A DNA stretch of 64,000 nt from Tricharina praecox (taxonomy: Eukaryota), in the NCBI RefSeq assembly GCF_024521635.1, contig NW_026250405.1, forward strand, positions 248,001 through 312,000, read 5' to 3'. The notes under the pieces are model-generated. The model did no database searches, was not told the origin of the DNA, and worked only from the letters and a program-made list of their open reading frames with translations. Below are positions 8,575 through 53,716 of the stretch, piece after piece; the first letter of the stretch is position 1, and each line of letters opens with the position of its first letter. Position numbers and translations under genes: made by a program.

Positions 8575-8960
8575 GGGGGAACGAAAGCTGACGAAACTTC
8601 AAACAGGACATCGTCCGATTCCCCCAGAGATCCTTCTCGCGCCGGATGGATCATGGATCGCCATGGCGAGTGGTGGTGGCGGCCTCGTTACAGTTCGTGA
8701 TCCGATTATCGAGGAGCCCGCTCGTCTGTCGAGCTGTCACTCTCAGGCAACTACTACCACTTCGTTCTATTTCTACCACACTAACCATTGACCAACGTTT
8801 TGGTGATGGTGGTAGTTGTGGTGGCGTACGACATAAGTCTTTTCTCAGTCACTCGGCGTTGTTTTGCTCAAGTTGTGTCTCGAACGCAACGGAGTCCCAT
8901 CGGGGATGATGATCTCACAAGTCCTGACGTGACTAATCCCATAAAGACGAAAACACAGTT
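8575..8960. repeat. Degenerate repeat, direct copy of ~11640-11900
   Basis: Shared GAAACTTCAAACAGGA, CCAGAGATCC, GGATGGATCATGGAT, GTGGCGTACGACA, TTTCTCAGTCA, TGTCTCGAACG, GACGAAAACACA. Confidence 0.85.
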
Positions 8961-9645: not shown

Positions 9646-10640
9646 CCGTATTATCTCACATGAGAGGTCTGGGTATATATGTCACTGTTATAGGTCTAAA
9701 GCGCGCATTAGCGCAGACTAGAGATCTTAGGGACTAGCGCAATATCAAAACGCGCCCTATGTGCTCGGAGAGAATTCTCGGGCTGTCCACAGAATCGATT
9801 CTATAGACTGATTTCCCCCCCCCAGAATCGATTGCAATATGTACAAATCTAACTAAAACTCGTCTGTTCGCCAAAATCGTACTCAACACCATCATCCTCA
9901 ATTCCACTGTTACCCTCACTGTCGGTAATTTGCGGGAAAGAAGTTACATGGCTACGCTGAGGTTTCCCTACCAGCCTGGCACTTCTCCGGGCTCCTACTG
10001 CTTGAAGGGCAGCTGGAGTTGAGGTTTGTGGTGCAGCCAGTGCTACGGCTAGTGGTGCGACCGGTGCTGCTGCTGGAGGAGCGGCCGGTGCTGCTGTTGG
10101 AGCGACCGGTGCTGCTGCTGGTGGAGCGGCCGGTGGTGCGGCTAGGTATTGGGTCCGAAGTGAGTCGACTGTTCGACTTCGTTTGGCTCTGGAAGGAATG
10201 ACGGCTGGAGGGGGGACCCAACGTGGGGCGACTGCGATGGGTTGTTTCCGGGGCCCTGGTGAAGGTTTGAACTTAACTGATGAACGCGTGAAAAGTGGCC
10301 TGGCCGGATCGGTAGATGGTTAGCTGTCAAGCTGTGAGAACAATGATGTGAGGGTTTCTACTGGCGGCGCTGAGTCCGATACTTGGTCGTTCATCATGGC
10401 GAATAGTTGCATTATTCTTCCGAGATGTGAGGAGGATAGTACTGTGTAGTTGACGATACTTCCAGCTACAGAGTCGTGTGTTCAGCTGTATGAACATACC
10501 TGCCAGCCCCTGAAGGCTGAACACCTGACGTTGCATAATTGCTCGGTGCGCTAACCATAGACGCCCTAGCTCACACTTACATGCACTAGTACCTATAATA
10601 TGAGTTTTTATAACCATACCTCTCATGTGAGATAATACGG
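9646..10640. mobile_element. Non-autonomous Tc1/mariner-superfamily (pogo/Tc2-like) TIR element, 995 bp, TA target duplication
   Basis: TA|CCGTATTATCTCACATGAGAGGT at 9646 and its exact reverse complement ending at 10640|TA; imperfect IR extends ~50 bp; no transposase ORF. Confidence 0.85.
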
Positions 10641-10642
10641 TA

Positions 10643-11400
10643 CCTTCCAAAAGACCCACGACCAAGTACGAGAAATGTTCCGGTGTGGATTTGTGAGTTC
10701 CGCACAGCCACGGGCAGCCAGCGCCGGAGGTAGGGAGGGGGGGAGGTGGGGGTTGTTCGGAAACAAGACCTCGCCCAGGTATCGAGCCGGACTGGGTTGA
10801 CAGCAGTATCATCCTCTCCCGTCTCGGTGTGTCTAATTAGGTTGGCTGGTATGGCAGCTTCAAACTGCACACACCTGCGCGTGGGAGGGCTTCGTGAGAG
10901 AGTAGCGCGTTTGTCGCTATTCCTCGCTGCGGAGATGTGTTCATCGGTGCTCACTCGGATGTCGAGTGACGCTGTTTGATGTCAAATGTCGACACCTTGC
11001 AATGTAGCGGTGTTTGCTGCGAAACAAAATTCTGAGTCGCGGCTAGTGCGCTAGAGGTGGTTTCTTGGAATTCCACCAGCTTAACCTATAAAACCCTCCT
11101 TTCCTCCCAACTCTTCCTCCCATTCTCCCTCCTCTCTCCACTCATTAACTTCTTCTCATTCTTTTCCGCCCAGCACTAATTTGTGATTCATGCCACTGAC
11201 TTAGAAATCCTCCTCCCCAAGTTATACGCGTATAACGTGGCTTACTACCCCCCCACGTTATACGCGGAGGTCGTCTTCCTTTCAGAGCAAAGGTCATATC
11301 TCCTGGCTATGCATGAGTGAGATGCAGGCGCCATTGGCCAAACGCTGTTGCTCTGGCCGCTGTGCGAGACAACGATATTTGACCCGTTTGTTGGTTGTGC
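10643..11400 (-). repeat. Inverted copy of the 41.9-44.4 kb repeat family, with an internal deletion
   Basis: Reverse complement matches 41870-42044, 42663-43095, 43950-43985 and 44281-44355. Confidence 0.92.
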
Positions 11401-12170
11401 CGTACGATCCAATACAGCGAGTGAGCACTTGCGAAGTTCCGTTGCTTTCTCGCGATTTCTCATAAAGAAAACGTGACCGATTGGTAACTCTTTGTCACTG
11501 TCCTGCTTCTCTCTCTCGAGGAGCGTTTTATACACCAGTACTACTATTCGAACATGAGGCAACGGTTGGAGAAGGGGGCTGCTGCTGCAGTGCTCGGCGA
11601 GCCTCGAGCGTCTCTCATGAACCACACAAGATCTGGTTGCGTGGGGCGAAAGCTAGCTGGGGAAACTTCAAACAGGATATCATCTTCCCCCAGCCTAGTC
11701 TCCAGAGATCCGTCTGGTGACGGATGGATCATGGATGGATGGCCATGGCAAGTGGTGGTCGTGGCGTACGACAAAAACCCTTTTCTCAGTCATTCGGCGT
11801 CGTTTCGAACGAGTTGCTGTGTCTCGAACGGACGGCGGCCCCATCGAGGATCGCACAAGTCACAAGTCATGACCAAACCCATAACGACGAAAACACAAAT
11901 CTATTTGAAACCACACAACTCACGCAACTCCCTGATACGGTACCATGGAGGAAAGGACGAGGGAATGGCATCGCAGAAACTATTGTGCGTATTGAGATGG
12001 TCTTGGATGCACTCGTACTTAAGTATGCAATCACCCCCTGCTATAGTGTGATTATATTAGATGGAGAAATAAAGTTTCATTCGGAACGTCGCAACCTGCA
12101 ATCCGAGCGATATATCATGATTGGTTTGAAGCAACAAATAAGCATTCGCGTATTCCATTCCACCAGTCCA

Positions 12171-21272: not shown

Positions 21273-24200
21273 TTAGTCGAAATACTTCAAGCCTAAGGAA
21301 TTTTGCTTGCTCACCCTAAATCCACCCAACATCGAGTTGACACTCATTCCGCCAGAAGACTGTCCCTGCTGTTGCTGGGGCTGCGGCAACCTGACGCCCT
21401 GGTTTTGCGGAGGGGGCGGCGCAGGAGTGTATCCAGCACTGGCAGTAACCCAGTTCTCGCCGCTACCCTGCTGCCACACATTCTCGCCGATGGGAACCCC
21501 CACTCCACCCCCGATGACACTCTGGTTCCACTCCTTGCGCTGCTGGTGCAAGCCGACGTCGACACGTCCTCCCTTCATGGCCAACTCTTCGACACCGATG
21601 CGGAGACGCTCCAACACCTCCATCAGGCCTCCGACGACATTTTCGCTGAGGCTCCGGCATTCGTCGCCGACGCGTTTCAGTGCACCAGGAAGACGCTGCT
21701 TCACTCCCTTCATGCAGGCCGCTGCGGTGGCAGCGGGCGCCGTGACTCCGTTGGCCCGGGCATGCTCTTCGGCGACTTGAATCGCGAGCTGCGCCTCGAC
21801 CACACGGACGGCGGGAGCAGATCGGAAATCCATCGCCAGCTTGATCAACGCAACTATCTCACCAAGAGTGGAAACGGCTTCAGCGAGAGCTTGAACGTTC
21901 TCCTGTGCGACCGTGTAGGAAGTCGGCGACTCGGCGTTGGGAAGGGGCAGCGTGTTCTCGTCGAAGAACTTGCGAAGCAATGTGGGTTGGATCGAGGGCG
22001 GGAACTGCCACACAACACCCCAGACAGCCTCAAGGACTTCGCCGTAACGCTTGCGCAGACCTTCGACGACCTGCTCGCCGACACGGTCAACGCAGCTGCG
22101 GTGTTCCGCGACCCGCTTTCCGCGCTCGATCTTGCTCCGGATTTGCCGCTCCTGCTCATCGATCCAGTAACGGCGCTCGGCATCCGCGGCACGCACCGTC
22201 TCGCCAGCCTGCAGAAGCGGACCGACGGAGATCTGAAGGTAACGGGCGTTTCGCTCGGTAACGAGAGACTGAAGGACGTGTTCGTGCTGCTCCATTGTGA
22301 CGTGAAGCTTGTTGAGGAGATCGATAGCTTCGAGCAGGAGATGGTACTCCAGTGCCGTTCCAGTACCTCGGGTATCCTGTGCGGTGACGGTAAATAACCA
22401 GTTCTTGACCTCCTCATACCACCGGCCACCGAGATCCTCGAGCTGCGTCTTGACCTCCTTGTAAGCCACTTCGACGTACTCGTTTTCGAAGATCGAGTAG
22501 ATCTCGGAATCGAGCTCCATCTTGTTCTTGGCCTCCTCGTGCTCGAAAGACTCCCGCATCCGCTCGATATCAGCAAAAGTGTAACGACCACTATTGTACG
22601 CGGTGGTGGTATGGCTCTGGTTCAACTGGGCGCGTTTCATGGCATTCTGCTGGAACACATTGATCCGGTTATTCGTCTTCTGCTCCAGCATCTTTCTCGC
22701 GTTGTCGAGGTACTGGTCAACGGGTGCCTGGTTGACAGCCTTATCCAGCGCAGCATATGCCATGTGGAGGAACGGCGGAATGTCTGCGATGATCTCCCCA
22801 TCGTCCTTGCTCTTCGCCTTCGTAAATGACAAGATAACCGCAGAAAGCCCCTTCGTGTCTACTGGGCGGTCCTCCTCGTAGTCGAATTCCTGCCGCTTGG
22901 GGAACGGGAAGGGGTACGGTGTTCCACCGGCAAGTCCCATATCAATTCTGTTCTCCGCCCGTGAGACGGAGGCCACAGTGGACGCATCATCCTCAAACTT
23001 GCGGCGGGTACTGGGGTCGATTCGGACAGCGGTAACATGCGGCATAGGACGCGGCATGAGGAGCTCAAGCTCGACCTTGGTGGCTGCGGCAATCTGCTCA
23101 ACGGTGGGCGTTGGTGAGGGTGTATCGTCGCGGTAGTTGTCCGGAGGTTCGGGCATCCCACCATAGCCTCCGTGAGAAGATCCGTGGTGGCTTTGTGAGT
23201 GATGGTACTTATCGCTTCCGAACTCGTCCAGACCTCCCAAATTGGGTGGCGGTGGCAGTGGCTGCATTCCCTCGTAGCCGACGCTATTTCCCTGGTGTTT
23301 CTTACCGTGGTAGGCATGTCGGGGCTCCTTTGGTTCTGGGGGTGGTGCCCTCATCGCCGCAACTTGACGGCTCCGTGCAACCTCCTCCAGGCCGGCCCAA
23401 TCCCGGTAGAGTCTCATCCGTTGATCGCCCAAGAGACTCAATTGTTCCTTGCTACCTGGCGCATTGTAAGAGTTCATCCTGAGGTTCTCGGCCTTCTCGG
23501 CAACGATGATATCCTCGGTCAGATACATGGCAAAGTTCAAAAGCGCATTGACATGAGTTGACGGAAGGCTAGGAAGGAGATCTGAGAATGTTGCAAACAA
23601 CGCTTCCTGGCTGCCGATGCCTCTCTTGGAATGATCATGGTGTTGTGTGGTCCCCGGTAATGGCATGTGCGGGATATCCGGAGTCGGACTCTCGCTAGGG
23701 TTAGTGACATTCTCGACATCATCCGGCACTACCGCTTCGAGAGGGCTAGCGGCGTGAGACTGGGGCTTCTGATAGTTCTGCGAGTAACTATTACCACCTC
23801 CATTCTCATATCCAGTGTAGACTGGGTGGGCCGGCATCTGAGGCGGGTCGGGTTTCCGCACAGGCGGTGCAGGTCCAGAGACAGCGGCAGTGTCGTCTAC
23901 CCATTGACCACGCATCACGCTCTCCCTCGTACCAATGTTTCCAGTAGGACTCGTAGCTTGAGTGAGAGGCGAAGTGACGTGACCACTGGGGAATCGCGGA
24001 TTTGACGTTCCAGAGTTCCCAACGGATGGCGGCGGGACGGGCTTCGAGTACAAGTATCCCCCCAACCCGACTTCTGCGGGACTTCTCTGCTGTGAACCCG
24101 GCTGAGCCGGCGATTTGACGAACTTCTCAGGCGAGCGACCAACATTGCCAACATTGCCAGCAGGCGGCCGCCTTAGCTGTTGCATCTGCTGGGTTGGGTT

Positions 24201-25104
24201 GACGCTGCTCTGCTGCTGATTCTGCTGCCCGTCCAATCCCAATCCCACACCAGACCCTTTTTCTTTCCTGAGAGGCGCGCCAGTCTCGTCCTTGTCCCCA
24301 CCTCTCGGTCGGTATTCAGGAGGAATCGGATCATCGCCCTCGGCGCTACCGGGTCGTTCCATCTTGCCCAATCCACTGGAACCACTAGAACCACGGGGAC
24401 GTGCACCCAAAGGCGGGGGTCCCCGGCTCTGCTCTTGCGTCTTCCGTGTTGGTTTCCGAGTCAAGAACCCGGTCGGAGTTCCGCCATCATTGGCCTCCCC
24501 ACGAGTATCCCCCACACTCTTGCCCATCAATGGAATTCCCATAAACCCCTTATATCCTGGGGCACCAGCTCCGAGGGCGATTCCTTTGATGAAGCCTCCA
24601 GGGGGTCCTCTCTGACCACCGTTATCGCTAACGGGTGTGTCGGGCGGAGGGCAGGACGGTGCCGGCGGAGGAGCCGGCCCGTCACTGACAGGTGTGAGAA
24701 GCGGCGGCATCATGTACCGCTGGGGCTGCGGTTGGTTCATATCACGGCCATGCTGGGGAGGTGAATCAGCGTTGGGATGAGGAGGTGGTGATGGCGCAGA
24801 TTGCTGTTGATGATATTTGCGGGGAGGCGAGTATGGTTGTTTCGGGCCGGAAGTTCCGGTTTGTGAACCGTGTGGCGAACCATTGTATTGCGAGCCCCGG
24901 TGCGTCCGCTCTTGTGGACTTCTTTGACCCTGTCCTCCTCGCGCTTGCTGCTTCGGACTGTTTCCTGAGTTGGAACCTTGCCCAAAGGACACCTTTCGCT
25001 CTCGCTCTTGTTGGGGGCTTTGTTGCTGATGTCCTGGCGAACGCTGGCCTCCGGTGTAAGACTGAGAAGTCTCTTCCTCTTGTTGCTGATACCGCTGCTT
25101 CTGC

Positions 25105-25148
<44 letters not shown>

Positions 25149-25149
25149 A

Positions 25150-25184
<35 letters not shown>

Positions 25185-27422
25185 CTGTTGATGCTGCTGC
25201 TGTTGCGGAGGACGGAAGTTGGAAGGCTCATTCTTCCGAATTGACAGCGGGCTCGTGACACGCGGTGCGGTATCTCGCTTCTGCTGCCCAATCGGGGGCG
25301 GAGGTCCATAGCCGGTCATACCACCCGGAGAAGTCGAAGCATTAACGAGGTGTCTCTGCAGGTGCTGCTGATAGCTGAATGCCGCCGCACGCTGCAGTTG
25401 CTCCTGTTGTTCCCTTTCACGCTCGCGATCCGCACCATCGAGCGGCTGCTTGGGCGGGATGGCGGGAGGTGGAATCTGCGAATAACCAGAGATATTCGAC
25501 TGCGGGGATGCATTCGAATATGGTGGTGTCTCGTGATATCCGCCGTACCCACCGCCGCCACCACCACCATTACCACCATTACCACCTCGTTGCTGTTTTG
25601 GCTGTTGTTGCGATTGGTGCGACGTGTGAGTGTGTTGCGACGCATGGATAGCATGGGAATGATGGCTCTGTTGCGAGGCGTGGGTAGCAGTTGAGTGCAC
25701 ACTCTGCTGAGACGGTGGTTGTGTAGGTGGTGTCGGGCGCCCGATCGCACTTGGCTTGTCAGACACCTCGGCCGGCGACATGGTGGACGGGTTACTCCGT
25801 TGGCTATATGACCGTCCCTCGCCGATACTACCCTCCTGCAAACTCCGGATATCGCTAAAGCTTCCCGGTGACCCGGCGAGCTGCTGCTGCTGCTGCTGTG
25901 GCGGTGGTTGGCCATACGGTTGTTGGTCATGGATATCAGGCGAGAAGGGATTAGTAGAAGACTTTGAACCTTGGTGTTCGTCCTCATCGTCGTCGTCGTC
26001 TTCCGGAACCCATCCTGCCGGGAAGTTGGCCTCCATAGGTGCTCCCTCGCCATGCTGGGCCGGCTGTGCCTCTCTGTGATTCGAGTACAGGGATGGTTGC
26101 ACTCCTGCAGGAGGCGGCTGGAACGGTTGCGCGACTGGGAATGCGGGGGTCTGATTAGGCGCAGCGTGAGGTGAAGTCGACAGATGAGAAGGGAAATGCA
26201 CCGGCTCCGGAGCCCCAAACTGCGAGCTGTAGCTCTGCGTCATGTGGGAGGTCACGTTGCTCGGCGATGGGCCACCAAACACTGGGTTTGAGTGGTGAGA
26301 TGACGATAACTCTTGCTGCCTAAAGCTGCCCGAGAGTTGGCCGGTCGTAATCGACGGCGGCGACTTGAGCGAAGATTGCTGTTGCTGCGACTGCTGTTGC
26401 GGTCGCGATAACTCAGCATCATACGAGCGCGATGGGATGGGCACCGGATTGCTGTAGTTGTGGTTCGGCGAGTTTCCCGAGGTCATGTCCTGGGAATTGC
26501 GGTTCTGCTGATGCTGATGCTCATTGTAAGACCCGCGAAGCTGGCTGTCGCTTGCGGGCTGCGAGAATTGCCGTATTGGTGAACGCTGCGGTTGAGGAAC
26601 ATCGAATGTTTTGGCATTTCGGTCCAACACGGGAGGCGGTTTTCGCCGATCCAAGAAGTCGGCCGAGCCGGGCTGTTCATCGTACGATCCATGCTGGTTA
26701 TTATTATTGCCACTGCCGTTGCCGTTGCTAGGCCGTGAGGAGTAATGGGCGGAGCTCTGGGAGTGTTGTGACAGAGTCTCCGGGTCCCGCCGCTGGTACT
26801 GCGGAGCAACTAGCTTAGAGAACTGGACCAACGGGGAGGTGTCGGGGGTTGGATCTACTTCGATGTGCCTCTGCGACTCCAGATCAAATTGGGTCTTCAG
26901 TGCTTTGTTCATCGGTTTGCCGAAGGGCTTGGTCGGGGAATGGTGCTGTTCGTTCCGAGCTTCATCTTTCTCCGGTTGCTGCTGTTGCGCTTGGACATCG
27001 TGCTGAAAGGCGTGGTGTTGTTGGTGATGCGACTTGTCCTGGTCGGAAGGGCCGCTATATCCGCGTTCATCGTACTCCAAATCCTCATACCGGCCATGAT
27101 CCTCGCCGTCGTCATCCTCGTGTTCCGGCTCATAGCTACCATTATCACCGTACTGTTGATAGTGGCCATCCACCTCCTCCTCTAACGGATGTGGCTCGCG
27201 GTGGTGGTGAGTATTGTTGTGGTGTGCACCATCGTCCTCGGTATTGCTATCTCCCCGCTTACGATTAGGAGGCGGGGGAGCACTCAGGCCGCCATCGTTG
27301 TCCGCGCTTCCTCCAGCACCACCACCACCGCTTCCACCATGTCCAGTTCGCTCCAACTCATCAGTTTCAAATTGCATAAACCCTGGTTGCGAGGATGATG
27401 ATGTGGGTTGCACTGTCGTCAT
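21273..27422 (-). CDS. 2049-aa hypothetical protein: long Q/P/S/G-rich disordered region with poly-Q, followed by a helical C-terminal domain
   Basis: Uninterrupted 6.15-kb ORF; CAG/CAA tract ~25105-25205; amphipathic helical region in the last ~500 aa; splice acceptor in the 5' UTR at 27509. Confidence 0.9.
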
Positions 27423-30400
27423 TACTTTGCGGTACAGTTATCGGTCGGTAATGATGGGACGTGAAACGATGAAGCGAGGTTCTTCCGGGGTTGCGTGGAA
27501 TTCGGATTCTGGAAAGAAGTAAAGTGTGTTAGCCGGCAAGCGAATCTTCGGATGTTTCCTTTCCCCATGCCAGCCACCCCCCAGCCCCTCACCCGCACCG
27601 CAGACCTTCGCCTTCTCGACGCAAGACCACAACCTCCTTGCGCGACAACAAGCCTCCCCCAGAGATCTACATCTAGATGGTAAAGGAAGAAGAGGGTAGG
27701 AGGAGGTCTCACATTATCTCCTTCGTAGTGTCCGTTATGCGACCGACGTGGATAGATGCGTAGCGTTGCGAAGACGGACGTGTTTATCGGTATGTAGATG
27801 TATGGTCGGCGGCGGCGTCGTAGAAGCGTCGTAGAAGCGTTCGTGCGAGCGTACGTGTGTGATGTGAGTTGTGGGAGTGTTCGTTAAGGGTGAGAGAGCA
27901 CGTAGGATGTAGTAGTAGTAGCAGGGCGCTGAGGGAGGGGGGGCGTTAAAGGTCTGTGTGTCGCTGCGCTGTCAGAACACCACCTCCTGTCTTCTCTCTT
28001 GGTTTCCTTCACTCGCTGGTTCTCTCATCCATCCATCCATCCCATGCATGTTCTTCAGCGGGAGTCCTTACCGTAAACGTATCGCGCGCGCTTCACACTC
28101 TCTTCACACTCTCTTCTCTTCTCCGAGGCCTCTTCTTCTTCCGTCTTTTTCTTTCTTTCGTAAATCGTCTTCGTCTCGTCGTGTCGTCGTGTCGCTCGTC
28201 GTCGACCACCGGCTCCGTCCCGACGTCACAAGCGGGGAGTGGGGGAAGAGAATATGCCGAAACAAAAAGAAAGGAAACAACGTCGCTGCTCGTGACGAGA
28301 AGAAAAAACAAAATGATGGATAAAACTCGGTATAAGTCAAGACAGCAAGTTCTAAACTTATCGCATCCGAATCCGAGTCCCCGTTGCTGCTGCTGCTGCT
28401 TCTGCTGCTGCTGCTATCCTTCAACACCGGTCGTCCGCGGGCGGGTGCGATGCGGAGAGGAGGTGGGTTTGGGGTGGAGGAGTCGATGCGAAGGGTAGGA
28501 AGAGGGGCGGGGGTGGTGGTGGATGGGGTCACTGCTACTACAAAGCGACTCGGGTACGACTGGACTCTGGAGTCTGTCTGGCATGGAAGGTGGAGCAGCA
28601 CACGCAAAATTAATCTCTCGTCTCAACTCACTCAAGCCCGTAAGAAGTATGTTCTCCCTGGTCGCTGTGAGCATTGGATGGCTACTCTACTTGGGTGCCT
28701 ATAGTACAGTACGTAGCCAGTGAACTGTGCGGATGTTTCCCTTCGCTCTTCTCTGCCCTTCTCTTCTCTTCTCCCTCTAGGTATGCTTCGTCCGACCTCT
28801 CTCTTTCTCTCGTAACGGCTGCCTCCGGAGTCCAAGTGCCAAAGTCAAGCCACATGCCCAAAAATAACATCCTACGAAACGCGCAGTTCACTCAGCCAGT
28901 CGCGAGTCGCGACAGCACAGCTCAGCTCAGCACTCAGCGACAACTGTCGAGCACCCGATGGAACATCCGCGAAGCACAAGAGAAACCAGAGAAACCAGAG
29001 AAACAACCCCTCCACTGCGGTACTATACCCACCCAGTTTCCCATGTGCTCTCGAAGATTTCTTCGCCGTAAGTAGAGTACTCTATTCTCCAAAGTGAGAC
29101 CAAAGTACCTCTAGCGCATCCCGCCTCCTCCGAAGCGAACGAAGGGGGGATCCGGTCGAGGGATGGAGGGTGGATGGTGGAATCTGGATGGATGAGTTGG
29201 CATAGTGCGGCGCGGCCAGCGACCAATCACGAGCAGCCGCTAGTTACTCTAAGTAGGGTATCCCGTCGCTCTTGCATCCAGATTGAAGGAAGGAAGCACG
29301 AGTCTCGTCCACAGGCCGGGCAGTGCGAGGTGGCGGGGGGAGGAACTGACTCTGGCAGTGGCCGTGGGAGTGAGCCTCAGCATCAGCGGGAATAAATCAA
29401 GATGCAGAGCAGCAAAGGCGGTGGGATGCCGTCATTCCGCATTCAACGTAACTAACGTGCGAGGAAAAAACTGGCAGAAGTGATTCTCCATCTCGTCGTC
29501 GCCGCGGTGATGTGCTGTCTTTGCTGTCGTGCTGCTGCGTGCTTCTTCGCATGATGGAAGGGCGGAAGGGAGGGAAGGCGGACGAATCTCATCGACGGCG
29601 ACAGCGGCGGCGGACGGGCGGGGCGGGGCTAGGGTACGTAGGGTGGCTTCAACTGCTGCATGCGCCTGACTCGAGCGCACGCAGGTTCCCGCCGGGGAGG
29701 GGAAGGTCCTGCCGACGCGAAATACCCCTGACTGGAGCGGGCTTGTAAGCACTCTGCATATCTATATAGAAAAGTAGATACATCGAGGGGAGAAGACTCT
29801 CAGGACTGAGGAGAGGCGAGCAGCCGAGTGATGAGGTCTTTGATTCTCATGCCCGTGCCGTGTGCGATGTCGTGGATTCGATGATGCCGTGGTTAGTAGT
29901 TATTTGTGTCGGCGACTCGGTGACGGAGTCGCATCGCCGCGAAGGTCCTTCACGCGGTCGGTCGGTCGACTTGCCGAGCGAATTCGATGCGCGCCGTAAG
30001 GTTTCATCACTACATGTCACTCGGTTGAGGTACAGGAGAAATTACACAAGTGAATTGAAACAAGCACTGGGAAAAGACAGTAAACCAGTAGAGTAAAGGA
30101 GGCAAACGAACGAATCGCAAGGAAGCTGTTGCATGTTTCCAGCCTTTGGGGGATAATGTTGATTCCGACCGGTCAGCGGAGAGTCTGGCGGTCAGAGGTC
30201 ATCGCCTGAAGCAGTGAGGACGTGGAGGACCATCTGGCAACTTTGGTAATAGGTAGACGACAGACCGATTGTATCTGAGAAGAGAGAAAACGACGATGTA
30301 AGAAAAAAAAGTGACACCTGTGTTCTTCAGGTGTCCTTCAAGAACCTCGCGAGTTGAATAGCGAGAGCGAACAACGATGAAAAGCAACGAAAACAATGAA

Positions 30401-38400: not shown

Positions 38401-41400
38401 GAGCTTCTCACCACCGTTTGGACTCTCAATAACAACGATCCATCGTTCGGAAAACATGTCATCAAATTCGAATGCACGGCTAAATCTCCGCAGGTCTGGG
38501 AAACCGATGAGAACGGCCAGGCGTATCACAGGTACATTGGGTGTTACCAGGACGGGGATCCTATTCGACGGATGGACACAATAGGGCATTCTACGGATAC
38601 GAATACCAACTTGGAGTGTATGAGATCATGTGCCAAGAAGGGCTCCGGTGTATGGCCTTTCGTGGCGACTGAGTATCACCGGGAATGTTGGTGTGGAACG
38701 AGACTGCCGCCCAAGAAAGTCTCTGATTCGCAGTGCAACTTTCTGTGCTCCGGAGACTACAACCAATACGTATGATTACTCTCGAAGAGTCACTTTATAT
38801 ATGCTAACGGTAATAGTGTGGTGGTGCAGGTCAACTCATGAGTCTTTTCTACGACAGACGTTTGTGGACGCCGAGCAACATCACAACTACGACTTCAACA
38901 AACCCGTCTGCAACACCTACTCCTAATCCTTGGAAATATGTCGGATGCACTTCTGAAGGGACTAACGGCCGCGCTCTCACCGGTGGTGGCAAAGCCTCGC
39001 CTGATATGACGCCCAAAATCTGTCAGGATCATTGTAAATCACTCAGCCAACCTCTTGCCGGTATTGAGTATTCGCAAGAGTGTTACTGCGGCGCAGCTCT
39101 TTCCAATGGCGCAGCTCTCGGATCGAACAACTGTAACATGGAGTGTGCCGGAGATGTTTCGCAGATCTGCGGTGGACCTGGGGCTCTGAGTCTTTACAGA
39201 TATGACCTAGATTCCATCCCTTCGAACGGGTCAGTTACCGCAACACCGACTGAGCCCCCAATGTCATCGTCTACTGTCTCGCAATCTTCGATCGCTACCC
39301 CAACCGGTGATCACGAATATTTAGGATGCGCAACCGAGGGGATCGGAGGCCGCGCACTTACTGGAGGCTTCAAGTTTTTCGACACCCTTACACCGGAGGA
39401 CTGCCAGAATTACTGCAGATCACTCTCACTTCCTCTTTCTGGCATGGAGTATTCGAAGGAATGCTTCTGTGGGTCTTCCCTCGCCAACAACGCCAAGTTG
39501 GGTTCACCGAACTGCAAAATGCCGTGCGGTGGCGATGGAAGCAAAATCTGTGGAGGGCCCAATGCTCTGAGTGTTTACCGTTTTGTTCCTAAGGACTCTG
39601 GTAACGCTACAACCTCCAACACCTCCGGAACCGTAACCCCCACATCACCATCATCGATCATGGTATCTGCTACGCCCACAGCCAACCCGAACTACAAGTA
39701 CCTCGGCTGTATAACCGAGGGGACCGGTGGGCGGGCGCTCACAGGCGGTTTTCTGTTCTTGGACACTATGACGCGCCAAAAGTGCCACGACCATTGCACG
39801 ACACTCCAACTCAAGTACTCCGGGCTCGAGTATTCGCAGGAGTGTTTCTGCGGCAGCTCCCTGGAAAATGGTGCTGCGCTGGGTTCTCCAAATTGCAATA
39901 TGCCGTGTGCAGGAAAGCTGGACGAGATCTGTGGTGGACCGGACGCGTTGAGCTGGTTTGAATACGTGCCGGTGTTGCTGCCCGAGCTGGGTTCTTCATC
40001 GGTAGCGGGGAGTTCGGTGGATGTCTCGGGGACTTCGTCGGCTACGGGAGTCACATCGTCAACTGGCGCTCCTTCGGCAACACCCCCTCCAGAACCTACC
40101 GAGGTGGGGTCCTCAGCGGATGCGTCTTCGGTACCGGCATCGTCATCCGCAGCACCTACCGTTGTGGAATCCTCAGTGGACGCGTCTTCGGTACCGGTAT
40201 CACCCTCCGCGACACCGACGGAGGTGGAATCCTCAGCCGATGCATCTTCTGTACCGGCATTGTCATCCGCGGTCTCGTCTTTCGCCTCAGGCGAGTCAAC
40301 GATGAGCTCAGAGACCGATGTGGTATCCTCTACAAAGGTCGTTCCTTCGTCCTCGGCCGATGCTTCAGCCATAACGCCTTCGCTTACAGAGGCTGTACCT
40401 TCGGGCACAGAGGCTGTACCTTTGAGCACAGAGGTTGTATTTTCGACTACAGAGGCTGTACCTTCGACTTCAGACCAAGACGACTTTCCGTCGGCGTCTA
40501 TGTCTTCTTCGGCAGAGGGTGGGTCGCAAACAAATTTGGCGTCTTCTACAGAGCAAATAATTTCATCCTCGACGGATGTACCTTCGGAAACGCCTTCCGG
40601 TTCATTTTCGGAAATCGAATCCTCAACGGATACGGCATTCTCCACAGTGGACATCTCATCTTCCGTGGTCGACATGTCTACGGCGCCTTCTGCTACAGCA
40701 GGTGTGTCTTCGTCCGCAATAGATGTTTCTTCAGCACAAGAATCATCCTCCAAACAGCCGACCACGGTCCCAGAAATTTCAACAATATCTTCGGACGAAC
40801 CATCTATCTCGCCCACCAAGGCCCTTTCATCACCCACGGAAGATACATTGGTAGCCCCCTCAACATCACCCACACCAGACATTGCAATCATCACCACAAC
40901 GTCTTCTCTGGGATTGGACCAATCCTACCTCGGATGCGCCAGTGAAGGCATTGACGGCCGGGCACTCCCGCTTTACACCTTTCAGTCGGCAGTGCTGACA
41001 CCGGCGCTCTGTCAAGAGCGCTGTAGAAACCTCTCGCTCCCACTCTCTGGCGTTGAGTATTCACGGGAATGCTACTGTGGCGTCGCACTCTCTCACAACG
41101 CCACACTCGGCTCGAGCGGATGCACGATGCCATGTGCCGGAGACTCGAGCAAAACCTGCGGTGGCTCCCGCGCACTCTCGGTTTACAACTGGACATCGTG
41201 GGAGCCTGCACCAGAGCTCTTCGGATGGGCCGATCTGGGGTGCTGGAGCGAGGCGGTTGGTGAAAGGGCGCTTATGGGCGATAAGGTGGTCATGAAGAAT
41301 ATGACTATGGGAATGTGCGTTGATTACTGCGATTTGAGGGGCTGGGAGTATGCGGGTGGTGAGCATGCGGGGGGATGTTATTGCGGGGACTCGCTGGCAC

Positions 41401-41507
41401 CAACAGCACAGCAGTTGAAGAGGGAGAAGTGTGGAATGCTGTGTGCGGGTGGTGGAGGAGCGTGTGGTGGGAAGAGTCGGTTGAGCGTCTATATGAAGGA
41501 GGAGTGA
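35430..41507 (+). CDS. Large secreted WSC-domain protein: signal peptide, PQQ-like beta-propeller, Ig-like domains, six WSC domains and a Ser/Thr-rich linker; about 7 introns
   Basis: NHNMDP, FYAQPLIYTP, GKHHQRPA, GGGIWMSGGG, DKDLGTSG and GKTGK motifs; six (Y/D)xGC...CxCG...C...CGG units; GT-AG introns with CTRAC join the ORFs; 16-nt microexon 35600-35615. Start may be 35415. Confidence 0.9.
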
Positions 41508-41629
41508 TACCTAAGGGGCCGTGGGACCTCGATGAGACTTGCTTGTACTTTTCGGTGTAATACTGCTTTTTGAATGATTGGTAGAATGGACACGAAATGG
41601 ATTTTGATAGCACGATGAGATCGGTTCAT

Positions 41630-44470
41630 GGGGGTGCACTCGGAAGATTCATAAATGCGCACTCGGAAAAAAGGACTCGACGATGGGAGCATCGATGAGA
41701 GCATCAACGGGAGCAGCGATTCAGATCGAGATCGAGATCGCGACCGCACAGTACCTGACGCCAAGCGATGGGCCAGCTGTCGGAGAAGATATAGTTCTCC
41801 CGCGAGCATGTACGCGTGCCACATCGTACAAACGCCCACTGCTACCGCCCCCAGCAGCAACCAACCCGCGCACCAAGTCAAATGTCATTCTCTCGCACAG
41901 CGGCCAGAGCAACAACGTTTGGCCAATGGCGTATGTATCTAACTCATGCATAGCTAGAGGTTAGACCTTTGCTCTGAAAGGAAGACGACCTCCGCGTATA
42001 ACGTGGGGGGGTAGTAAGCCACGTTATACGTGTATAACTTGGGGCGGTAGTAGACCAAGTTATACTTCTTTGGTTATTTATTTGCTCTTCTGAAACCGTC
42101 TGTAGCCCGGTTACGGAGGCATGGGCCTTGGCCACGCATGTAGCACGTCTCTCACATGACATGCATGGCCAGGAGGAAAGACCTTTGCTCAATGCTCTCT
42201 CACAGGATTTCACAGCAAAGGAAGAAAACCTCCGCGTATAACCTGGGGGGATAGTAGGCCAGGTTACATGCGTATAACTCGGAAGTCATATTTTCTTTGT
42301 TTTTTTCTTCCTCGTCAACACGAAACCGTCTGTCACCCGGTTTCGGAGAGGTCATCCACCAGGAGCAAGTCGGCTGTCACCCGACTTGGACTCCCGGGGT
42401 AAAGGGGAAAGAACTTCGCCGTCAGCAGAAGAGAAAACCCCGTCCTTGGATCTTTTCTGCTCAGCCTCGAAGGTTGGATCCGTCTATTGGCGCTGCAACA
42501 GTCGACTTTGTAGATCAGTTGCACGGATCCCTCAGTTCCTCGCTGCTACGGCTGAGCAGGATAGCTCTGTAAGGTTATCCTGGAAGTAAAAAGCGGGAGG
42601 GGAGGGAGAGGGACTTACCTCGAGGTTTGAGCTCAGGTGGAAGGAAGGAAGGAAGGAAGGAAGGGGAGGAGGATTTCTAAGTCAGTGGCATGAATCACAA
42701 ATCAGTATGAGAAGAAGTTAATGAGTGGAGAGAGGAAGGAGAATGGGAGGAAGAGTTGGGAGGAAAGGAGGGTTTTATAGGTGAAGCTGGTGGAATTCCA
42801 AGAAACCACCTCTAGCGCACTAGCCCTGACTCAAAAGTTTGCCTTTTAGCAAATACCGCTACATTCCAAGGTGTCGACAGATATTTGACATCAAACAACG
42901 TCACTCGACGAAGGAGTGAGCACCAATGAACCCATTCCCACAGCGAGGAATAGCGAAAAACGCGCAAACAATTACTGATTAAACAAAACCAAGAAATGAT
43001 AGCAACAACTACTCTCTAAGTGAAGCCTCCCACGCGCAGGCGTGTGCAGTTTGAAGCTGCCACACCAGCCAACCTAAAGAGACACACCGAGACGACAGTT
43101 GGGCGGGGGGGTGCACGAGGAAGCTTCATTCATTCGCACTCGGAAGCAATGAATAAACCAAAAAAAGAGAACGTCAACGGGGGAATGGTGATAGTTACTT
43201 CAATCCGAATAGCGATAGACCGGAAGTCGTTTTAGAAGATCATTCATCATTCCTCGACACAGGGGGAAAGTGAAATTATGGCTCTGAGTGAGGGCTTCCG
43301 AGATGGACTCTAGGGAGAGGAAGGTAAGATAGGTAGGCGGAGACGTGTGAAAAGTGGTTCTTTGACGTCTGTTTGTTTCGTGGGTACGAACTCTATCATC
43401 TGTCGTACCCAGACGGAGGGCTTGGTAGACGAGGTTTTTGCTAATGACCATACTACTGTAGATATGCTGAATGCGAGTGATATTAACCAAAAAGAAGAGA
43501 GCAACAACGGGAGCAGTGATCTCGATCTCAATCGCGACCGCACCGTCCCCTACGCCGAACGATGCGCCAGCAATTGGAGAAGATATAGTGCTTCGGCGAG
43601 CATGCACGCTTGCCACATCGTACGCCCCCCCAGCAGCGTCCAACCCACACACCAAGGTCAATGTCGTTCTCTCGCACAGCTGTCAGAGCAACAACAAACG
43701 TCACTCGACATACGAGTGAGCAAATATGAACACCTTCCTTCAGCGAGGAGTTTATGTGTCTAGCGACAAACGCGCAAGCACTTACTGATTGAATAAATAA
43801 AGATAAAACAAAAAAAGAATAGCGACAAACGTGAGATGGAGGCGAGCACGTTTTATACTTTCCATACGCCACGAGCAGGCGTTTGCAGTTTGATGCTGCA
43901 ACAGTAGCCGACCTAAAGAGACACACTGAGAGGAGGGAGAGTGATACTGTGGCCAATCCCGTCCGGCTCGATACCTGGGCGAGGATCTACATCTGTTCCG
44001 CTACTCGGGAGTCTCATCCTGAATCCTGATGACGATTGAGAGGAATATCACCATCACCGCGCCTCACTTTTGCATTGAACCACAGCCGTAACGATATCCG
44101 AACATACTTCTCGTTGATTCGTTGCCCAAGTGTCTGATAGGTAGAAGCGCACCTTTTAGCCCCACTCCCGAGTATACTAGAAAAGATCCAGTAGAAGGAG
44201 TGCCTGATTTATTTCATACTACATACTTCTTTTCTTCGGGAACAACCCCTACCGCCCTCCCTCCGGCGCTGGCCGCCCGTGGCAGTGCGAATCTCACAAA
44301 ACCACACTACGGTTCCGAACATTTCTTGTACCCGGCAGTGGCTTTTTCAGAAGTTAGGTTCATACATAGTCACTGTCACGACTCTTAAAACCGACCACTG
44401 CAGATGCTCGCCGCACACAGTCAATGTCGTTCTCGCGCGCAGCGGTCAGAACAACAAAATTTGGCTTGGG
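41630..44470 (+). repeat. Cluster of degenerate, partly tandem copies of an unclassified repeat family (coding relic plus non-coding module)
   Basis: 41632~43110; 41705-41915~43505-43692; 42895-43095~43695-43930; 41875-41925~44420-44466. Confidence 0.88.
41918..42893 (-). other. Structured non-coding module: TATA box, pyrimidine-rich leader, putative intron, multiple hairpins
   Basis: Minus-strand TATAAAA 42779-42773; GTAAGT...ATAAC...ACAG 42618-42567; stems at 42457-42559, 42359-42397, 42321-42345, 42236-42269, 42032-42065 and 41996-42029; no convincing ORF. Confidence 0.6.
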
Positions 44471-45744
44471 TGGTCATTCCTCCCACTCATGGCCAGAATG
44501 AAAGAGTTATTGATAGAATATGGAGTACTGGAGGCCACTATACTTCGTAGCCCAGCCGTGATTGAGTACGATGAACCAGAGACACTGGAAGTAACCAGGG
44601 ATCAGAGCCGCTGAGATTTCAAGCAGCAACCCCGCTAGCAAGTAAGCTAGCCATAGGTTTGGCCGACAACAGCGCACAAGCCGCGTCAGTAGTTGTAACT
44701 TAAATATTCTGTTCTTTCAATCACGTCGTCCGTCACCGGTTTCGGTGCCTCTATCCATCCGTGCGGTGCGTTATCTGAACTATTCGCCGCCCGCACGCTA
44801 TATGTGATACCCAGCGAGCCCTAGCGTTTTATAGCCTGTGTTGACTGACGTGCCGACACAGAGCGATTGCGTGAATCTGTTTGCTTCATGAGAAGTCACC
44901 CGGGCGATTTCACGAGTGAGAGTGTGTGGAGCTATGTATTTTCCGGAGTAGGGGAGTCATGAAGGAGAGTGAAGATGGCAGGCGAGCTGGAATTTATGAA
45001 GACCTAGGGGGAGTAGGAGGGTATGGAGACTTCAACGGACTGTAAACTGTTAAGTGAAACCTCGAGCGGGACTACAGGAGACAGCAGGTGTGCACAATTT
45101 GGCATGATTGGAAACGGTCAGACGGAATATGGCGAAGATAAAAAAAAGCTTCAGCTTGAGATTCGGCATCGGCCATCGATATTGTATTCACACATGCTTG
45201 GGTGGCTCTACTTAATGACTACGTGTTCTGGCTGCGTTGGTGATGTAACTCTGTCAGAGGTAGACGTCCGGGGATGAAGGCCGGAGAATGGTCTTTCTAC
45301 CGGAGCACCTCCAGCCGCTGCCTGGACTGGGAGGTTCTTCACGAGATCCATGGAACTTTTTACATACGGGTAGCGGCAGACTGGCTGCGTCGTCGAGGCT
45401 ACAACCAAGCAACAGATTCGTCTCTCTCTCTTTCCCTCTAATATCCTAATAATGTAAAAACAGCTGACCACCCCATACGATTCCCCTGGTTCGCACTCCA
45501 ACGGCTCTTGTAGCTCGCGCGATACGCGATAGTAAGGTGCAGCGCCCCCTCCGACACCAAAAACGCCTCCCAGATTCAAGGTTTGCCCCCCCCTCCCCCC
45601 CGGCCCCCCCACGCGCGCACAAGTACATACCTACATACGCAGACAACAGAATCTCTAGCGCCCATCCGAAACCCATAGACAAAATGCGATACCTCAGACA
45701 AAAGAAGAAACCCGTAAGCTCCCAAACCACAACCAACCACCTTT

Positions 45745-47259
45745 TCAGATTTTGATGCAAACTCCGCTCTCCAGGATCATCTTGGAAACATTCACCACCG
45801 AGAAGATCCCCACAGCAGCCAGAAGAGTAACCGTCACTGCGAGGTACGGCATCAGTGTCTTTTTCCCACCCAAAATGTTCACGAATGGCAGGAATATTGC
45901 CAGCGCCTGTCCAATAGCGAGCCAACCGACAACAGAGAACCGCTGGACAGAAGTGCTCCCAGCCGCTTTGAAACCTGTCATGACGTATATGATGACGTAG
46001 GGGACAATCATTGAGAGAAGCCACAAGATGGAATATAAAAACAGCATTGCAATCATGAAATATCTGTATTTCGGCGTTTTCAACGATCTTAGTATCTATG
46101 GCGTAACGTTATCAGTAAATGAACTTTCTCTGGGAGTGAGGCATATCCGATCGTAACGTACTCTCTCGTAATTATTGATTTTAAAATCCGCCGGTGGAAT
46201 GTGTAGCACCCCTACCGCACCAATAACTTTATCCTGTAGTTCCTTATCAACCTCGCGGACACCTAGTACCACCCGTTCTTTTCCGATTTCCTCTCTTTCT
46301 ACGAAGGTAGTATCATAGTGGGAATCTGCTCCAAAGGAACTATCTGGAGGGGTACATGGACAATGTGGGCCGCCGTAGTGTAGCAGGTACATATGAGTGT
46401 ATCGTGGACGCATTATCGCCGCGAGAAGGTTGAGGAAGGACATCCACAGGTACGGTATCACCGTTAGTCCATATGCTGCATATCCGTATCGGTCGATCTG
46501 GACTCCGCGAGCGTCGTATAGCTCCTTACTCGCAAAGAAGATCTGTGCGATGGCGGCGATTCCTTGTACGAAGCTGTACGAAGCTGCGATCTCCATTTTA
46601 CGCATAGAGTTGACATCGTCCCCTAAGCCGTGTGCGTGCCCCTCGCGGGGGATGGGGGCAATGCGATAGTAAATCTCTCCAGTATCGGTACGTCGACGCT
46701 GAAAGAGGCTTCGGAAGGAATCAAAGATCCGGCGGGGAAAGGAAGCGCGCGCTGCTAGGTTGGTTGGGTAATAACCGTGCACCTGTGCCGAATCATGGAA
46801 CCCCAACGCACTGTGGTTGCACGATAGTTAGCCTTGCCTGGGATTGCCTTGCCACATGGAGAGCTGGTGTTCGGTGGATGAAATTGATACATACAAGTCG
46901 TTTAGCTTCATATTCGCATCCGCGAAAGCAGTCGGCACCACACAATCTTCACCTTTGAACCCCACAACTATACAGAGAGCCCCGCAGCGAGTAGCGCTTA
47001 TAAAGGAGCTTTCCAGGAATGCCGGCGGCGACAGCACCATGCCCAGCGCCCGCAAAGTGCCCAACAGCGGCATGAAAAGAGAGCCGACCGCCCAAGCAAG
47101 TGACACACTGCTGACTGCTCCCGGTTGCAACATGATTGTGAATACGTGCGTGACGTAGTTTAGCAGGATGAATTTCACGACGCTCGTCCAGGTCGCATCA
47201 GTGCATATCGTCTCGCTGTGAGTACCTTGGCGAATCGTTGTACCGTTGACGGTGGTCAT
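45745..47259 (-). CDS. Uncharacterised fungal multipass membrane protein, paralog 1, 3 exons
   Basis: ETICTDATWTSVVKFILLNYVTHVFT and RGVQIDRYGYAAYGLTVIPYLWMSFLNL; two GT-AG introns at the same positions as in paralog 2. Confidence 0.85.
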
Positions 47260-47545
47260 GATTGTGTTTGCGAGCAATGGACGACTTTGGCTAGGATCGG
47301 GTATGTAATAGTATTGTTCGTGGTGTGACTGCAGGATCTGTATGTATAGGAAGTCAATATTCTCTAGCTCGTTGAGCGGGGGAATCCTCATACATATACC
47401 CATCATCTGCGACCATTGGTAGTCAGCATACCTCGCTCGTGTATCATCATTCCGGTCAGACAGCACAGCTGAAGGAGTGCGAAGCTTAACGGGGCACTTC
47501 GAATGGCAGCTACAGACGCGAGACATTCCTAAGTACGGTATATGA

Positions 47546-47756
47546 CCGTATCAACTCACTTAAGAGGTGATGTCTCTGTTCTGTTTTTCTAGCGCTTGGC
47601 GCACTAATTATTGCCCGAACGGAAAGTAGCTAAACCAAACAGAAATACACATAATTGTCTCTCATATCAGAGGCCAAGATTGGAGATATGTACCTATAGA
47701 AAGCTTACTGCCAGATATGGCAGTAGAACTATTACCTCTTAAGTGAGACATTACGG
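47546..47756. mobile_element. 211-bp MITE with TIRs related to the 9646-10640 element
   Basis: CCGTATCAACTCACTTAAGAGGT ... ACCTCTTAAGTGAGACATTACGG|TA; left flank reads GA rather than TA. Confidence 0.7.
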
Positions 47757-50059: not shown

Positions 50060-51597
50060 TCACAACTGGACGCAGACTCCCTTTTCCAGAATCATCTTAG
50101 AAACATTCACCACCGAATAGACTCCGACGGGGATCAGGAACGTGATCATGATTCCGCTGTAGATCGTTTTAGCCCGGCTTTCGCCGTACAAGCGCAAAAA
50201 CGGCAGGATGAGTGCCAGAACTTGTCCCGTAGCGAGCCAGCCGACGACAGCGAAGCGCTGGGCGGTGGTGCTCTCGGCTGCTTCGAAGCGCGTCATGATG
50301 TATATGACGATGTACGGGATCACAAGCGAGAAGGCCCATATGACGAGCTGGCCGATCTCCTTGCACAGTGTGGCCCAGTGCTCAAGCACGGGCTTAACCG
50401 GTATTCCGTGGTGTTTCTTGAGGCTCTCCAGGAAGGGTTTGAACTGGAACACATCATCTCAATCCGTCAGGATACATGTTCATTCCGGAGGTGGTGGCTG
50501 ACCGCGTAGCGGTAGAACTCGCACCGTATAGTAGGGCCTCTCTTTGAGAGCCTCCGGGCGGATGTATACCACTCCCACCGCACCGACAACAGAATCCCGT
50601 AATTCTCCGTCCAGTTTCCGCCGTCGTTCGAGCTCTTTCCCACCAACCTCGTGTATGTCGACATGCGGCGGCTCTTTCTCCCCTCCCTCGTTATCGCACG
50701 CCGGTGGCGCCACTGCGTCTCCGGCGGGCTCGCCATAATGCACTAAATACACATGCGAGTACTGCGGCCGAAATATCGCCGCAACGAGGTTAAGGAACGA
50801 CATCCACAGGTATGGTATGACCGTCAGCCCGAACGCCGCATAGCCGTAGCGCACGACCTGGTCGCCGCGCGAGGCGTACAGCTCCTTGCTCGCAAAGAAG
50901 ATCTGTGCGATTGCGGCTGCGCCCTGCACCAAGCTGTACGAATTCGGGATCTCCATGTTTTCGAGCTGTAGACCCTCGTGCAGCGGCTCTATCCGCGCGT
51001 CCGGTGGGATGCGCACGAGGTGGTATCGCGTAGTATCGTCGTCGGTAGGGGCCGCGCCGCGGCGCTGGGCATCGTCCCGAGGCTTGCGAATGGTGTCGCA
51101 TACGACTGGGTGGTCTCCGTGCACGTGCTTGAAGTCATTCTGCCACTCGTTCCACTGGCTGGAGGGATTGAGTGAGGTTAGCTGCTACCACGTATCGAAG
51201 GAGGCGCCGGTGTGGCAGCCACAACGTACAAGTCCTTCAGGTTCATCCCCTTTGCCGCGAACGCTGTCGGTACTATCACGGCACCGGCACCATTGCAGCC
51301 AACAACCATGTAAACGGCGCCGCATCGGAGCGCGGTCGCACACGAGGAAAGGCGAGCACTGGGGTACGACATGATGACGGTGATTGCCCTCCAGGTGCCC
51401 GCAAACGGCATGAACAGCGCCGTGAGCATCCACGAAAAGATCTGCGGATTCCGTGCTCCCGGATGCTGCATGACCGTGAAAACGTGCGTCACGTAGTTCA
51501 GAAGGATGAATTTTGTCACGCTGGTCCACGTCGCATCCGTGCATATGGTTTCTCCCTGACTGACGAACCGGATGGTTGGAACTTCGACGGGTGCCAT
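50060..51597 (-). CDS. Uncharacterised fungal multipass membrane protein, paralog 2, 3 exons
   Basis: ETICTDATWTSVTKFILLNYVTHVFT, RGDQVVRYGYAAFGLTVIPYLWMSFLNL and VVNVSKMILEKGVC. Confidence 0.85.
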
Positions 51598-53716
51598 CGT
51601 ATCGTATCGTACGTACGAGCGCAAGTACGGAACGGACGGCTTCAGCGAGGATGGGTGTGTATAGCGTTTGCGGTGTCGGCTGGAAGCTGCTGCTGCTGCT
51701 GCTAGGTTCGGAGATGAGCGGTTGAACTCTTCCGCTAGCTGTGGATAGGTATCCCCATATACTATATACACCGTGGGAAGCGGCCGATGTCTCGGATTGC
51801 CTCGCTGGATGAGCGTTGCTTAGTGTGCCCAGTGCGGGACAGTGTAAACCTTCTGGAAGAACATGTCGAACAGCGGATGCATATGCCAAACAGGCACCTG
51901 GGTTGTTCCTCCGGGCTGTTGGAGGGACTTTACTGGCCCTGATATGTACGATCGCCAATCAAGAGCAGCGAAATATGGAGAGATAAATCACAAATATTCG
52001 CATTACATATATGAGCTGGCTACAGACGAAAAGGACGCCCCCGGGAATGTAGTGCAGTGCAGAGCGTCTGACAACGGTCCTATCGTAAGCGCGGCGAAGG
52101 TGCAGTCGCGACCGTCACTCGAATCAAGTTCCTAGAGTAGCTCCCTGCAGTATTGCGTCGGCCTGGGCCTGAACTGTGCTTCTACTCTTCCGTGCCACGA
52201 TTCGATACTGGTAGGACACGTGATGATTGCACCCTGCATGAGATGAGCCCAATCAACTCCAACTCCAACCTCACACGAATCACGAGTAGTCTTGACCATG
52301 GTTCTGCGTGATCGCGTTCGAAGCGCCTCTTTCGATCCGAAGCCTGGTTTGCGTGGCGACCATAGGCTGCATCCCGCAACACCTGTAGACTATCGGCCGG
52401 GAGTATCCGAGTATTTCGGTAACGACTCTGTAAGCCTCACTGTACATATGATACGTATTTGACAGCGCCTGGCGCTACATTAACATTCGTCCCAAGAAGG
52501 GGTTTTTCGCTCACCTGGTCGGCCAGTTGATCAAGAGAACGACTCGCCTCAGCGAATTCCCGTCCGGATGTCCCGGTCGACCACTTGCAGGACCTAGCCT
52601 TGGGACCTCTGAGGTTCAAACAGTTCAAACTGCCGCTCTAGAGTCTAGAGGAATGAGTCCACCCTGCGCCGCTGCGCATGAAGACGGTGGGCGACTATCA
52701 AGGGGTAGGTAGAAGGTGTGGCGCTGTTGACGTCTTCTTGGAAGCGAAACGGCGAAAATGAAGGATGATTGAGAAGTTAAGGTTGTATTCAACTTCGAAG
52801 AGCCATCTCATATGGCTCTCCCCCGCTACCTACAACGTTCGGTTCCACCCGATCAGGTTAGTCCGGCTATCGCCGCTATTCGGATCCACCGATTCGACTA
52901 GCCCCTCCTCGTATCTTATCTAATCTTCTATCTATCCTCCATATGCTCCTCTCGTGGTGGTGGTAGACAACCGCTGTCCGCGGACCGTCGGATTAACCAG
53001 TAGATACTAGACAGTCGCCTTGTTAATATGTTTTGTTGATACCTGTGGGGAAACTGTGGTCCAGGTACTCTAATAGTTCTACTTATCGCGCGATCTACTT
53101 GTACGGTTGGTAATAGTTATGTTTCAGCGGTAGCACTCAAGCAAGTATGCAAGTACGGAAGCTCCGCGCTGTTTCGCGAAGCCCGGCGGCGGCAGTATTT
53201 AAACAGACAGGCGCGTTACGAGCGACGACCATGCGAGCGGCTTCCGATTCCCTACCAACTTCTTACGTACATGATACCCAGGCATCTGCAGTGCGGTATA
53301 TGTATGGTACGGTACTCGGTACTGCGTGAGATGGAGGACGTACTCCGGAGGTACCTAGCATCCAGGCATATCCCGACAACGACAAGGCCAGAGAGAGATC
53401 ACCGGTATATGGTAGTATCTTATCGGATAACCTAGAATTCACGATCGGCAGGGCCCCAGTGCCTGAAGGTTTAAGGCTGGCGATGGTACTTCCGAACGCC
53501 GGAAATAAAAAAGCCGGGCTTGTTTTAACTTATCGTGTAACTGTTACAGCAGGCGGTCCCGGTATTCCTTCCGCGATGCGCGGAGCATGCGGAAAGGTTC
53601 CGACATGCCTTGAAGCGACGTCGCGGCAATGGGTTGGGATTGATACCTGTATGCACGAATGGAATAATTTATCCGTCTTTGGGAATCGGAAGAGTGGATA
53701 TCCCGCTGCTGATCGC

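Follow-up and report, generated by a model that had tools for sequence, protein, structure and literature searches.

The window, by which we mean the entire 64,000-nucleotide stretch of DNA analysed here, is eukaryotic and fungus-like, with genes for WSC-domain, MFS and GMC-oxidoreductase proteins and introns with GTAAGT/GTACGT. Its GMC oxidoreductase finds its best named matches in Tuber and Rhizina, none of them above 44% identity. The locus of interest sits in a 3.7-kb non-coding stretch lying 3′ of the stop codon (41507) of a plus-strand WSC gene, where a sequence-only reading had proposed a Pol II-transcribed, spliced and highly structured non-coding RNA inside a repeat. Other repeats are scattered through the window. 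Positions 3661–4231 and 4850–5421 form a tandem duplication with a period of ~1.19 kb and 76–91% identity across several blocks (families D9 and D13–D15), and a 2054-aa open frame on the minus strand (21273–27437) carries long CAG/CAA-type repeats and is without a Pfam family. On the minus strand at 46096–47550 and 50480–51958 lie two paralogous ORF pairs, each split by one in-frame stop or intron and neither containing a Pfam family, that have in common a 229-nt stretch (46371–46599 versus 50731–50959, 76% identity). This shared stretch (D4) was considered as a pair of long terminal repeats (LTRs) and rejected, since it lies inside the two ORF pairs.

The feature at the locus is an element of 1008 bp on the minus strand (41883–42890, copy B-down), which begins with TGTCA and ends with TGACA. 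On either side of it stands the 5-bp direct repeat TTTGA, a putative target-site duplication whose 5′ copy lies at 42891–42895 and whose 3′ copy lies at 41878–41882. The boundaries of the element were set independently of these termini by placing contigs of two soil-metagenome DNA runs (X1 and X2) on 40500–44500 at an 85% likeness threshold. The 3′ boundary matches loose contig ends at 41881 (five X1 contigs, whose mutual agreement beyond the point of divergence is only 0.62) and at 41882 (two X2 contigs), and the 5′ boundary, near 42900, matches a step in depth from 81.2 in the bin 42778–42911 to 16.8 in the bin 42912–43045. At random places in the window, with the same tolerances, TG..CA termini combined with a 5-bp duplication arose in 768 of 200000 trials, and the addition of a 5-bp terminal inverted repeat reduced this to 26 of 200000. 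All copies within the window have homologous flanks and so derive from one insertion, which makes the TTTGA duplication a single observation.

In X1, depth was 7.2 over the flanking gene, 68–81 at 42644–42911 and 110–238 at 41840–42643, and the pattern over flank, promoter part and body was the same in X2. Element depth was 10–30 times that of its flanks in the two runs, with many deletion-variant joints; the stretch is a member of a dispersed family of roughly 10–30 copies. The claim that the locus lies inside a repeat therefore held, the sequence being multi-copy, dispersed and non-coding. Short inverted 5′-TG...CA-3′ termini, a flanking target-site duplication of 4–6 bp and a dispersed distribution with sharp common boundaries are all features of LTRs, and all three are found here. 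None of the sequencing runs found to carry the locus is recorded as RNA. Two smaller runs of uncertain type (X4 and X6) carry the neighbouring WSC gene at 100% identity together with diverged copies of the element (42291–42597 and 41963–42087). Metagenome scans with two patterns drawn from conserved parts of the 3′ hairpin region returned 0 loci each.

Depth over the body is about twice that over the promoter part, a ratio that could reflect 5′-truncated copies or a mosaic family, not a uniform LTR, and that would also be explained by greater divergence of the upstream part (U3), below the 85% likeness threshold. This profile bears on a possible if somewhat doubtful alternative, namely that the element is a non-autonomous mobile element of another class with a promoter of its own (a SINE-like or LINE-mobilised retroposon, a retrozyme-like element or a small DNA transposon), whose TG..CA ends and TTTGA repeats would be coincidental. 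Depth climbs toward the 3′ end, from about 10–45 upstream of 42912 through the promoter part to the body, a gradient of the kind that 5′-truncated retroposons show; the family is a mosaic with many internal deletion variants; and the sequence is palindrome-rich, with alternating GTATAAC/GTTATAC 7-mers reminiscent of the subterminal repeats of some DNA transposons. Against this alternative, the termini and duplication are unlikely by chance, as estimated above, and the element lacks a tRNA-like part, its terminal inverted repeat does not extend past 5 bp, and neither poly(A) nor a simple-repeat tail is present at 41883. Neither ARAGORN, which reported 0 tRNA genes, nor the Rfam models (tRNA, 5S, SRP) detected a Pol III SINE head of the tRNA, 5S or 7SL type. 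Retrozymes and the terminal repeats of Penelope-like elements carry hammerhead ribozymes; our element would resemble these as a non-coding, structured, repeated retroelement RNA, but differs in that Rfam, even with E allowed up to 10, matched it to no self-cleaving ribozyme, the hammerhead included.

A second copy of the element (copy A, 10977–11378, plus strand) lies with its flanks at about 10.6–11.4 kb, in the orientation opposite to B-down. It is bounded by TTTGA on both sides, its end is mutated to TA (C>T), and it is without the equivalent of 42662–42048. Reading 42048–42662 as an insertion relative to copy A was rejected because copy A retains an orphan 3′ hairpin arm, AAGTTATAC, which identifies it as the deleted form. 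Copies A and B-down are 89.1% identical in the 5′ flank and 93.8% and 90.6% identical inside the element, which fits a single ancestral insertion in a segment that was afterwards duplicated. Repeat-induced point mutation was rejected as a source of the differences, the A/B substitutions within the element (18 transitions, 12 transversions) not being transition-dominated. Two further minus-strand remnants lie upstream of B-down, one (copy B-up, 43641–43695) reduced to roughly the final 50 nt of the element, ending ...GAGAGAACGACA and then TTGAC, and the other (44420–44457) with a third trace of the element 3′ end, ending ...GAGAACGACA and then TTGAC. The region 41600–44460 is thus about three tandem units of flank plus element, in two of which the element is mostly deleted. 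The part that B-up has lost is bracketed by a direct repeat of 8 bp, ACGTTGTT (in copy A, ACGCTGTT), which was at one point taken as a hAT-type duplication with B-up as the empty site; this was ruled out because B-up keeps about the last 50 nt of the element, which makes it a deletion derivative.

B-down itself departs from the other copies by an internal duplication of its own (about 42080–42320, 241 bp), which the others skip: three X1 contigs and one X2 contig link 42079 to 42321 or 42323 through ~10 other bases. The duplicated stretches, 41977–42118 and 42217–42348, are 71% identical. Close to copy A, a 52-nt inverted repeat (9644–9695 and 10591–10642, 81% complementary) encloses ~1 kb with an Ala/Gly-rich repeat ORF and stops exactly where the low-copy flank of copy A starts; a transposon of the terminal-inverted-repeat type is one possibility. 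A direct repeat of 41 nt (8575–8615 and 11644–11684, 80% identical), which lies just downstream of copy A, suggests more small repeats in that intergenic region.

The promoter-like features that had been proposed for the minus strand are present as described. A TATAAAA motif, the putative U3 core promoter, lies at 42773–42779, 112–118 nt from the element 5′ end; the motif occurs nine times on both strands of the window, two of these in the two element copies. It is followed by a leader (42619–42772) that is 78% pyrimidine and contains a (CCTT)n run, whose length differs among copies, as seen in joints 42601>42709 and 42608>42730 and in loose ends at 42709. Promoter and leader recur in copy A at about 10977–11218, the part that is 93.8% identical. 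A TATA box with a pyrimidine box is the usual core-promoter layout in filamentous fungi. The proposed 52-nt intron, GTAAGT...ATAAC...ACAG (42567–42618, minus strand), likewise exists as letters from GTAAGT at 42618 to ACAG at 42567, and all three frames do stop soon after the candidate junction (6, 17 and 11 codons). Searching both strands (128 kb in all) for a loose version of this pattern gives 34 occurrences, or ~0.27 per kb per strand, so that one occurrence per 1-kb element is not beyond chance. No 42566/42619 joint was seen among the joints listed (15 of 34). A diverged copy in X4 has GTACGT at the same relative place, in a contig that continues through the intron-like segment. Either a chance match or a splice donor within an LTR may account for the segment. 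An AATAAA motif is found in B-down at 42081–42076, on the edge of the duplication that this copy alone carries; the letters at the joints indicate that copies lacking the duplication would read AAATAA there, and the motif is probably not conserved.

We found no coding capacity in the element, its longest ATG-initiated ORF being 72 aa. Among 21 ORFs in and around the repeats, comparison with Pfam gave only five weak matches (E 0.03–0.16), all under the curated cut-offs. These results bear on a further explanation, that the stretch supplies promoter and 5′ UTR to members of some ordinary family of protein-coding genes, to which the promoter-like layout would be suited. No ORF follows either copy, the 50-aa ORF after copy A being closed in copy B by a stop at its third codon, and the small ORFs nearby have only the weak Pfam matches just described. 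Furthermore, for copy A and B-down alike, the gene that lies ahead is convergent and presents its 3′ end, which means that neither copy serves as a 5′ UTR. We regard this explanation as highly improbable. That reading had also matched its candidate to no known RNA, and here the covariance models agreed: Rfam gave 0 matches at gathering score over the whole window and no match to snRNA, snoRNA, SRP, RNase P/MRP, telomerase RNA or ribozyme families, and at E up to 10 the interval 41500–44500 yielded only two irrelevant matches, SNORA54 (17.4 bits against 60) and a bacterial leader.

The body of the element is rich in hairpins. On the minus strand, a nested inverted-repeat domain (42457–42559) has stems of 10, 8 and 5 bp in which CTGCTCAGCC (42559–42550) pairs with GGCTGAGCAG (42466–42457), GGATCCGT with ACGGATCC and GCAAC with GTTGC, all at the positions originally proposed. 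Downstream (42321–42397), two hairpins with 8-bp stems follow, the first with an outer stem. These two hairpins (42388–42366 and 42345–42321) do share the loop GTGACAG in B-down, but the shared loop is private to this copy and the others have GUGAGAG: at 42376, G is replaced by C in the other copies at 247.3 of 247.3 depth in X1, where the first loop reads GTGAGAG. A degenerate third hairpin near 42092–42115 also exists, but not as an independent one, for it lies inside the internal duplication. The outer stem had been offered as evidence of strand, on the ground of a G.U pair (42395/42361) on minus; this argument fails, as the pair is G-C in every other copy compared, with A>G at 42361 at 171.7 of 171.7 depth in X1 and 52.5 of 52.5 in X2. 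One subfamily has two changes that break the outer stem.

Folding energies, expressed as z-scores against dinucleotide shuffles, showed an excess of structure with little strand preference. The nested domain scored −2.87 on minus, where 3 of 300 shuffles did as well, and −2.82 on plus, where 2 of 300 did, and the 267-nt domain of the sequence-only reading scored −2.12 (6 of 200) and −1.98 (7 of 200). The larger interval 41919–42566 reached −7.3 on minus against −4.1 on plus; its energies on the two strands are nearly equal (−239.3 versus −236.6 kcal/mol), so this difference is due to the shuffled backgrounds. Folding is therefore better than in shuffled controls, modestly so for the 267-nt domain, but it is not strand-specific. 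The minimum-energy fold pairs 62% of positions, and 15 of the 32 best-supported of 187 variants fell in paired ones; of these 7 keep the pair, 8 break it and 0 are compensatory.

These observations weigh on the main proposal of the sequence-only reading, in which the copies would be genes of one family whose structured non-coding RNAs are transcribed by Pol II, are spliced and have a function in the cell. In its favour are a canonical TATA box and pyrimidine box, a 5′ splice-site consensus kept in the diverged X4 copy as GTACGT for GTAAGT (loose end 42597), the folding of 41919–42566 well below its shuffles, and variants within the nested-stem domain that, among the best 32 of 187, fall mostly in loops. 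The pairing evidence is, however, equal on both strands, the sole strand-specific pair being G-C elsewhere; over half of the paired-position variants in that same set of 32 break their pair, and none compensates; large parts of the supposed domain are lost or duplicated among copies, copy A having lost half of it by deletion; and the sequence has no Rfam family and ends like a transposon. An undescribed structured RNA gene thus receives no positive support from strand-specific pairing or, within the best 32 of 187 variants, from covariation, and we consider such a gene family very unlikely. The companion suggestion, an RNA intermediate of a non-autonomous element, came close to the evidence in pointing to a dispersed repeat, here one with the termini of a retroelement LTR; as to its nature we prefer the LTR itself.

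That the stretch is a dispersed repeat derived from a mobile element of some class is much more certain than its assignment to any one class. Within that frame, the termini, flanking duplication and shared boundaries lead us to favour a solo LTR, or an LTR-like terminal repeat, of an undescribed multi-copy retrotransposon family as the probable identity; we read the host as an ascomycete without a close sequenced relative. Solo LTRs of fungal Ty3/gypsy and Ty1/copia elements include delta and sigma of budding yeast and the Tf solo LTRs of fission yeast. Our element is like these in its TG...CA termini, 5-bp flanking duplication and internal putative TATA promoter, as well as in the lack of an ORF, the dispersed copies numbering in the tens and the decay through deletion. 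It is unlike them in that no matching internal element is known, in its length (~770 bp typically, 1008 bp here), in combining a short putative U3 with a very long hairpin-rich putative R/U5, and in carrying an intron-like segment as well as perfect 11-bp hairpins arranged in tandem. According to PMC3601003, the features conserved in LTRs are short TG...CA inverted repeats, a TATA box, a GT-rich stretch and the motif AATAAA; the first two are present in our element, and AATAAA is present in B-down.

Under the LTR reading, the history of the locus may be sketched as follows. An element would have inserted once in low-copy sequence, duplicating 5 bp (TTTGA), after which recombination between its two LTRs would have left a solo LTR. 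The segment would then have been duplicated to give copy A and the three tandem units at 41.6–44.5 kb, and the copies would have decayed through deletion and internal duplication. About the first 140 nt would be U3, with the TATAAAA and pyrimidine box, and the remainder, ~600 nt in typical copies, would be R/U5, a hairpin-rich leader found at both ends of the genomic RNA. An LTR is expected to show just such an arrangement, with a hairpin-rich leader behind a promoter made of a TATA and a pyrimidine box. Several points count against the LTR reading: no internal part (gag/pol, primer-binding site, polypurine tract) was seen, the two metagenome scans having found nothing; a putative U3 of ~140 nt is unusually short and an R/U5 of ~600 nt unusually long; all copies in the window go back to one insertion; AATAAA is probably unconserved; and body depth is twice that of the promoter part. 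Taken as an LTR, the case amounts to a correction, in which a promoter-, intron- and hairpin-bearing candidate for a non-coding RNA is best read as a decayed transposon terminal repeat, a common source of false candidates of this kind in fungal intergenic DNA. The family would be undescribed only because the host lineage is unsampled, and the result is in this respect ordinary.

One detail may deserve a further look. On the minus strand at 41992–42066, two perfect 11-bp hairpins stand in tandem (family D6), each consisting of GTATAACNNGG, a 12-nt pyrimidine-rich loop and CCNNGTTATAC, and two stem positions vary between the units while remaining complementary within each. Their z-scores are −3.63 on minus and −3.06 on plus. 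The complementary changes fit selection for a hairpin at the DNA level and at the RNA level equally, and also fit palindromes that arose as perfect repeats. A more ambitious variant of the LTR reading would give the retroelement LTR a splice donor or intron that works, together with a hairpin-rich RNA module that is conserved and acts in cis, in packaging, self-priming or RNA processing; the tandem GTATAACNNGG...CCNNGTTATAC hairpins, with their complementary stem changes, would make up this module along with the paired hairpins and the nested-stem domain. We hold this variant to be unlikely; were it true, it would represent a structured leader or ribozyme-like module of a new kind, in a fungal lineage without a sequenced close relative. 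The stable hairpins directly downstream of the putative LTR promoter do resemble the structured 5′ leaders (R/U5) of retroviruses and LTR retrotransposons, which serve packaging, dimerisation and priming, but differ from them in showing no covariation among the best 32 of 187 variants.

The same part of the element has a second regularity. At 41992–42066, 42230–42270 and 11221–11263, the 7-mers GTATAAC and GTTATAC alternate in orientation, each being palindromic with its neighbour across the hairpin boundaries, an arrangement for which a cruciform or a set of dimer-binding sites is a possible reading.
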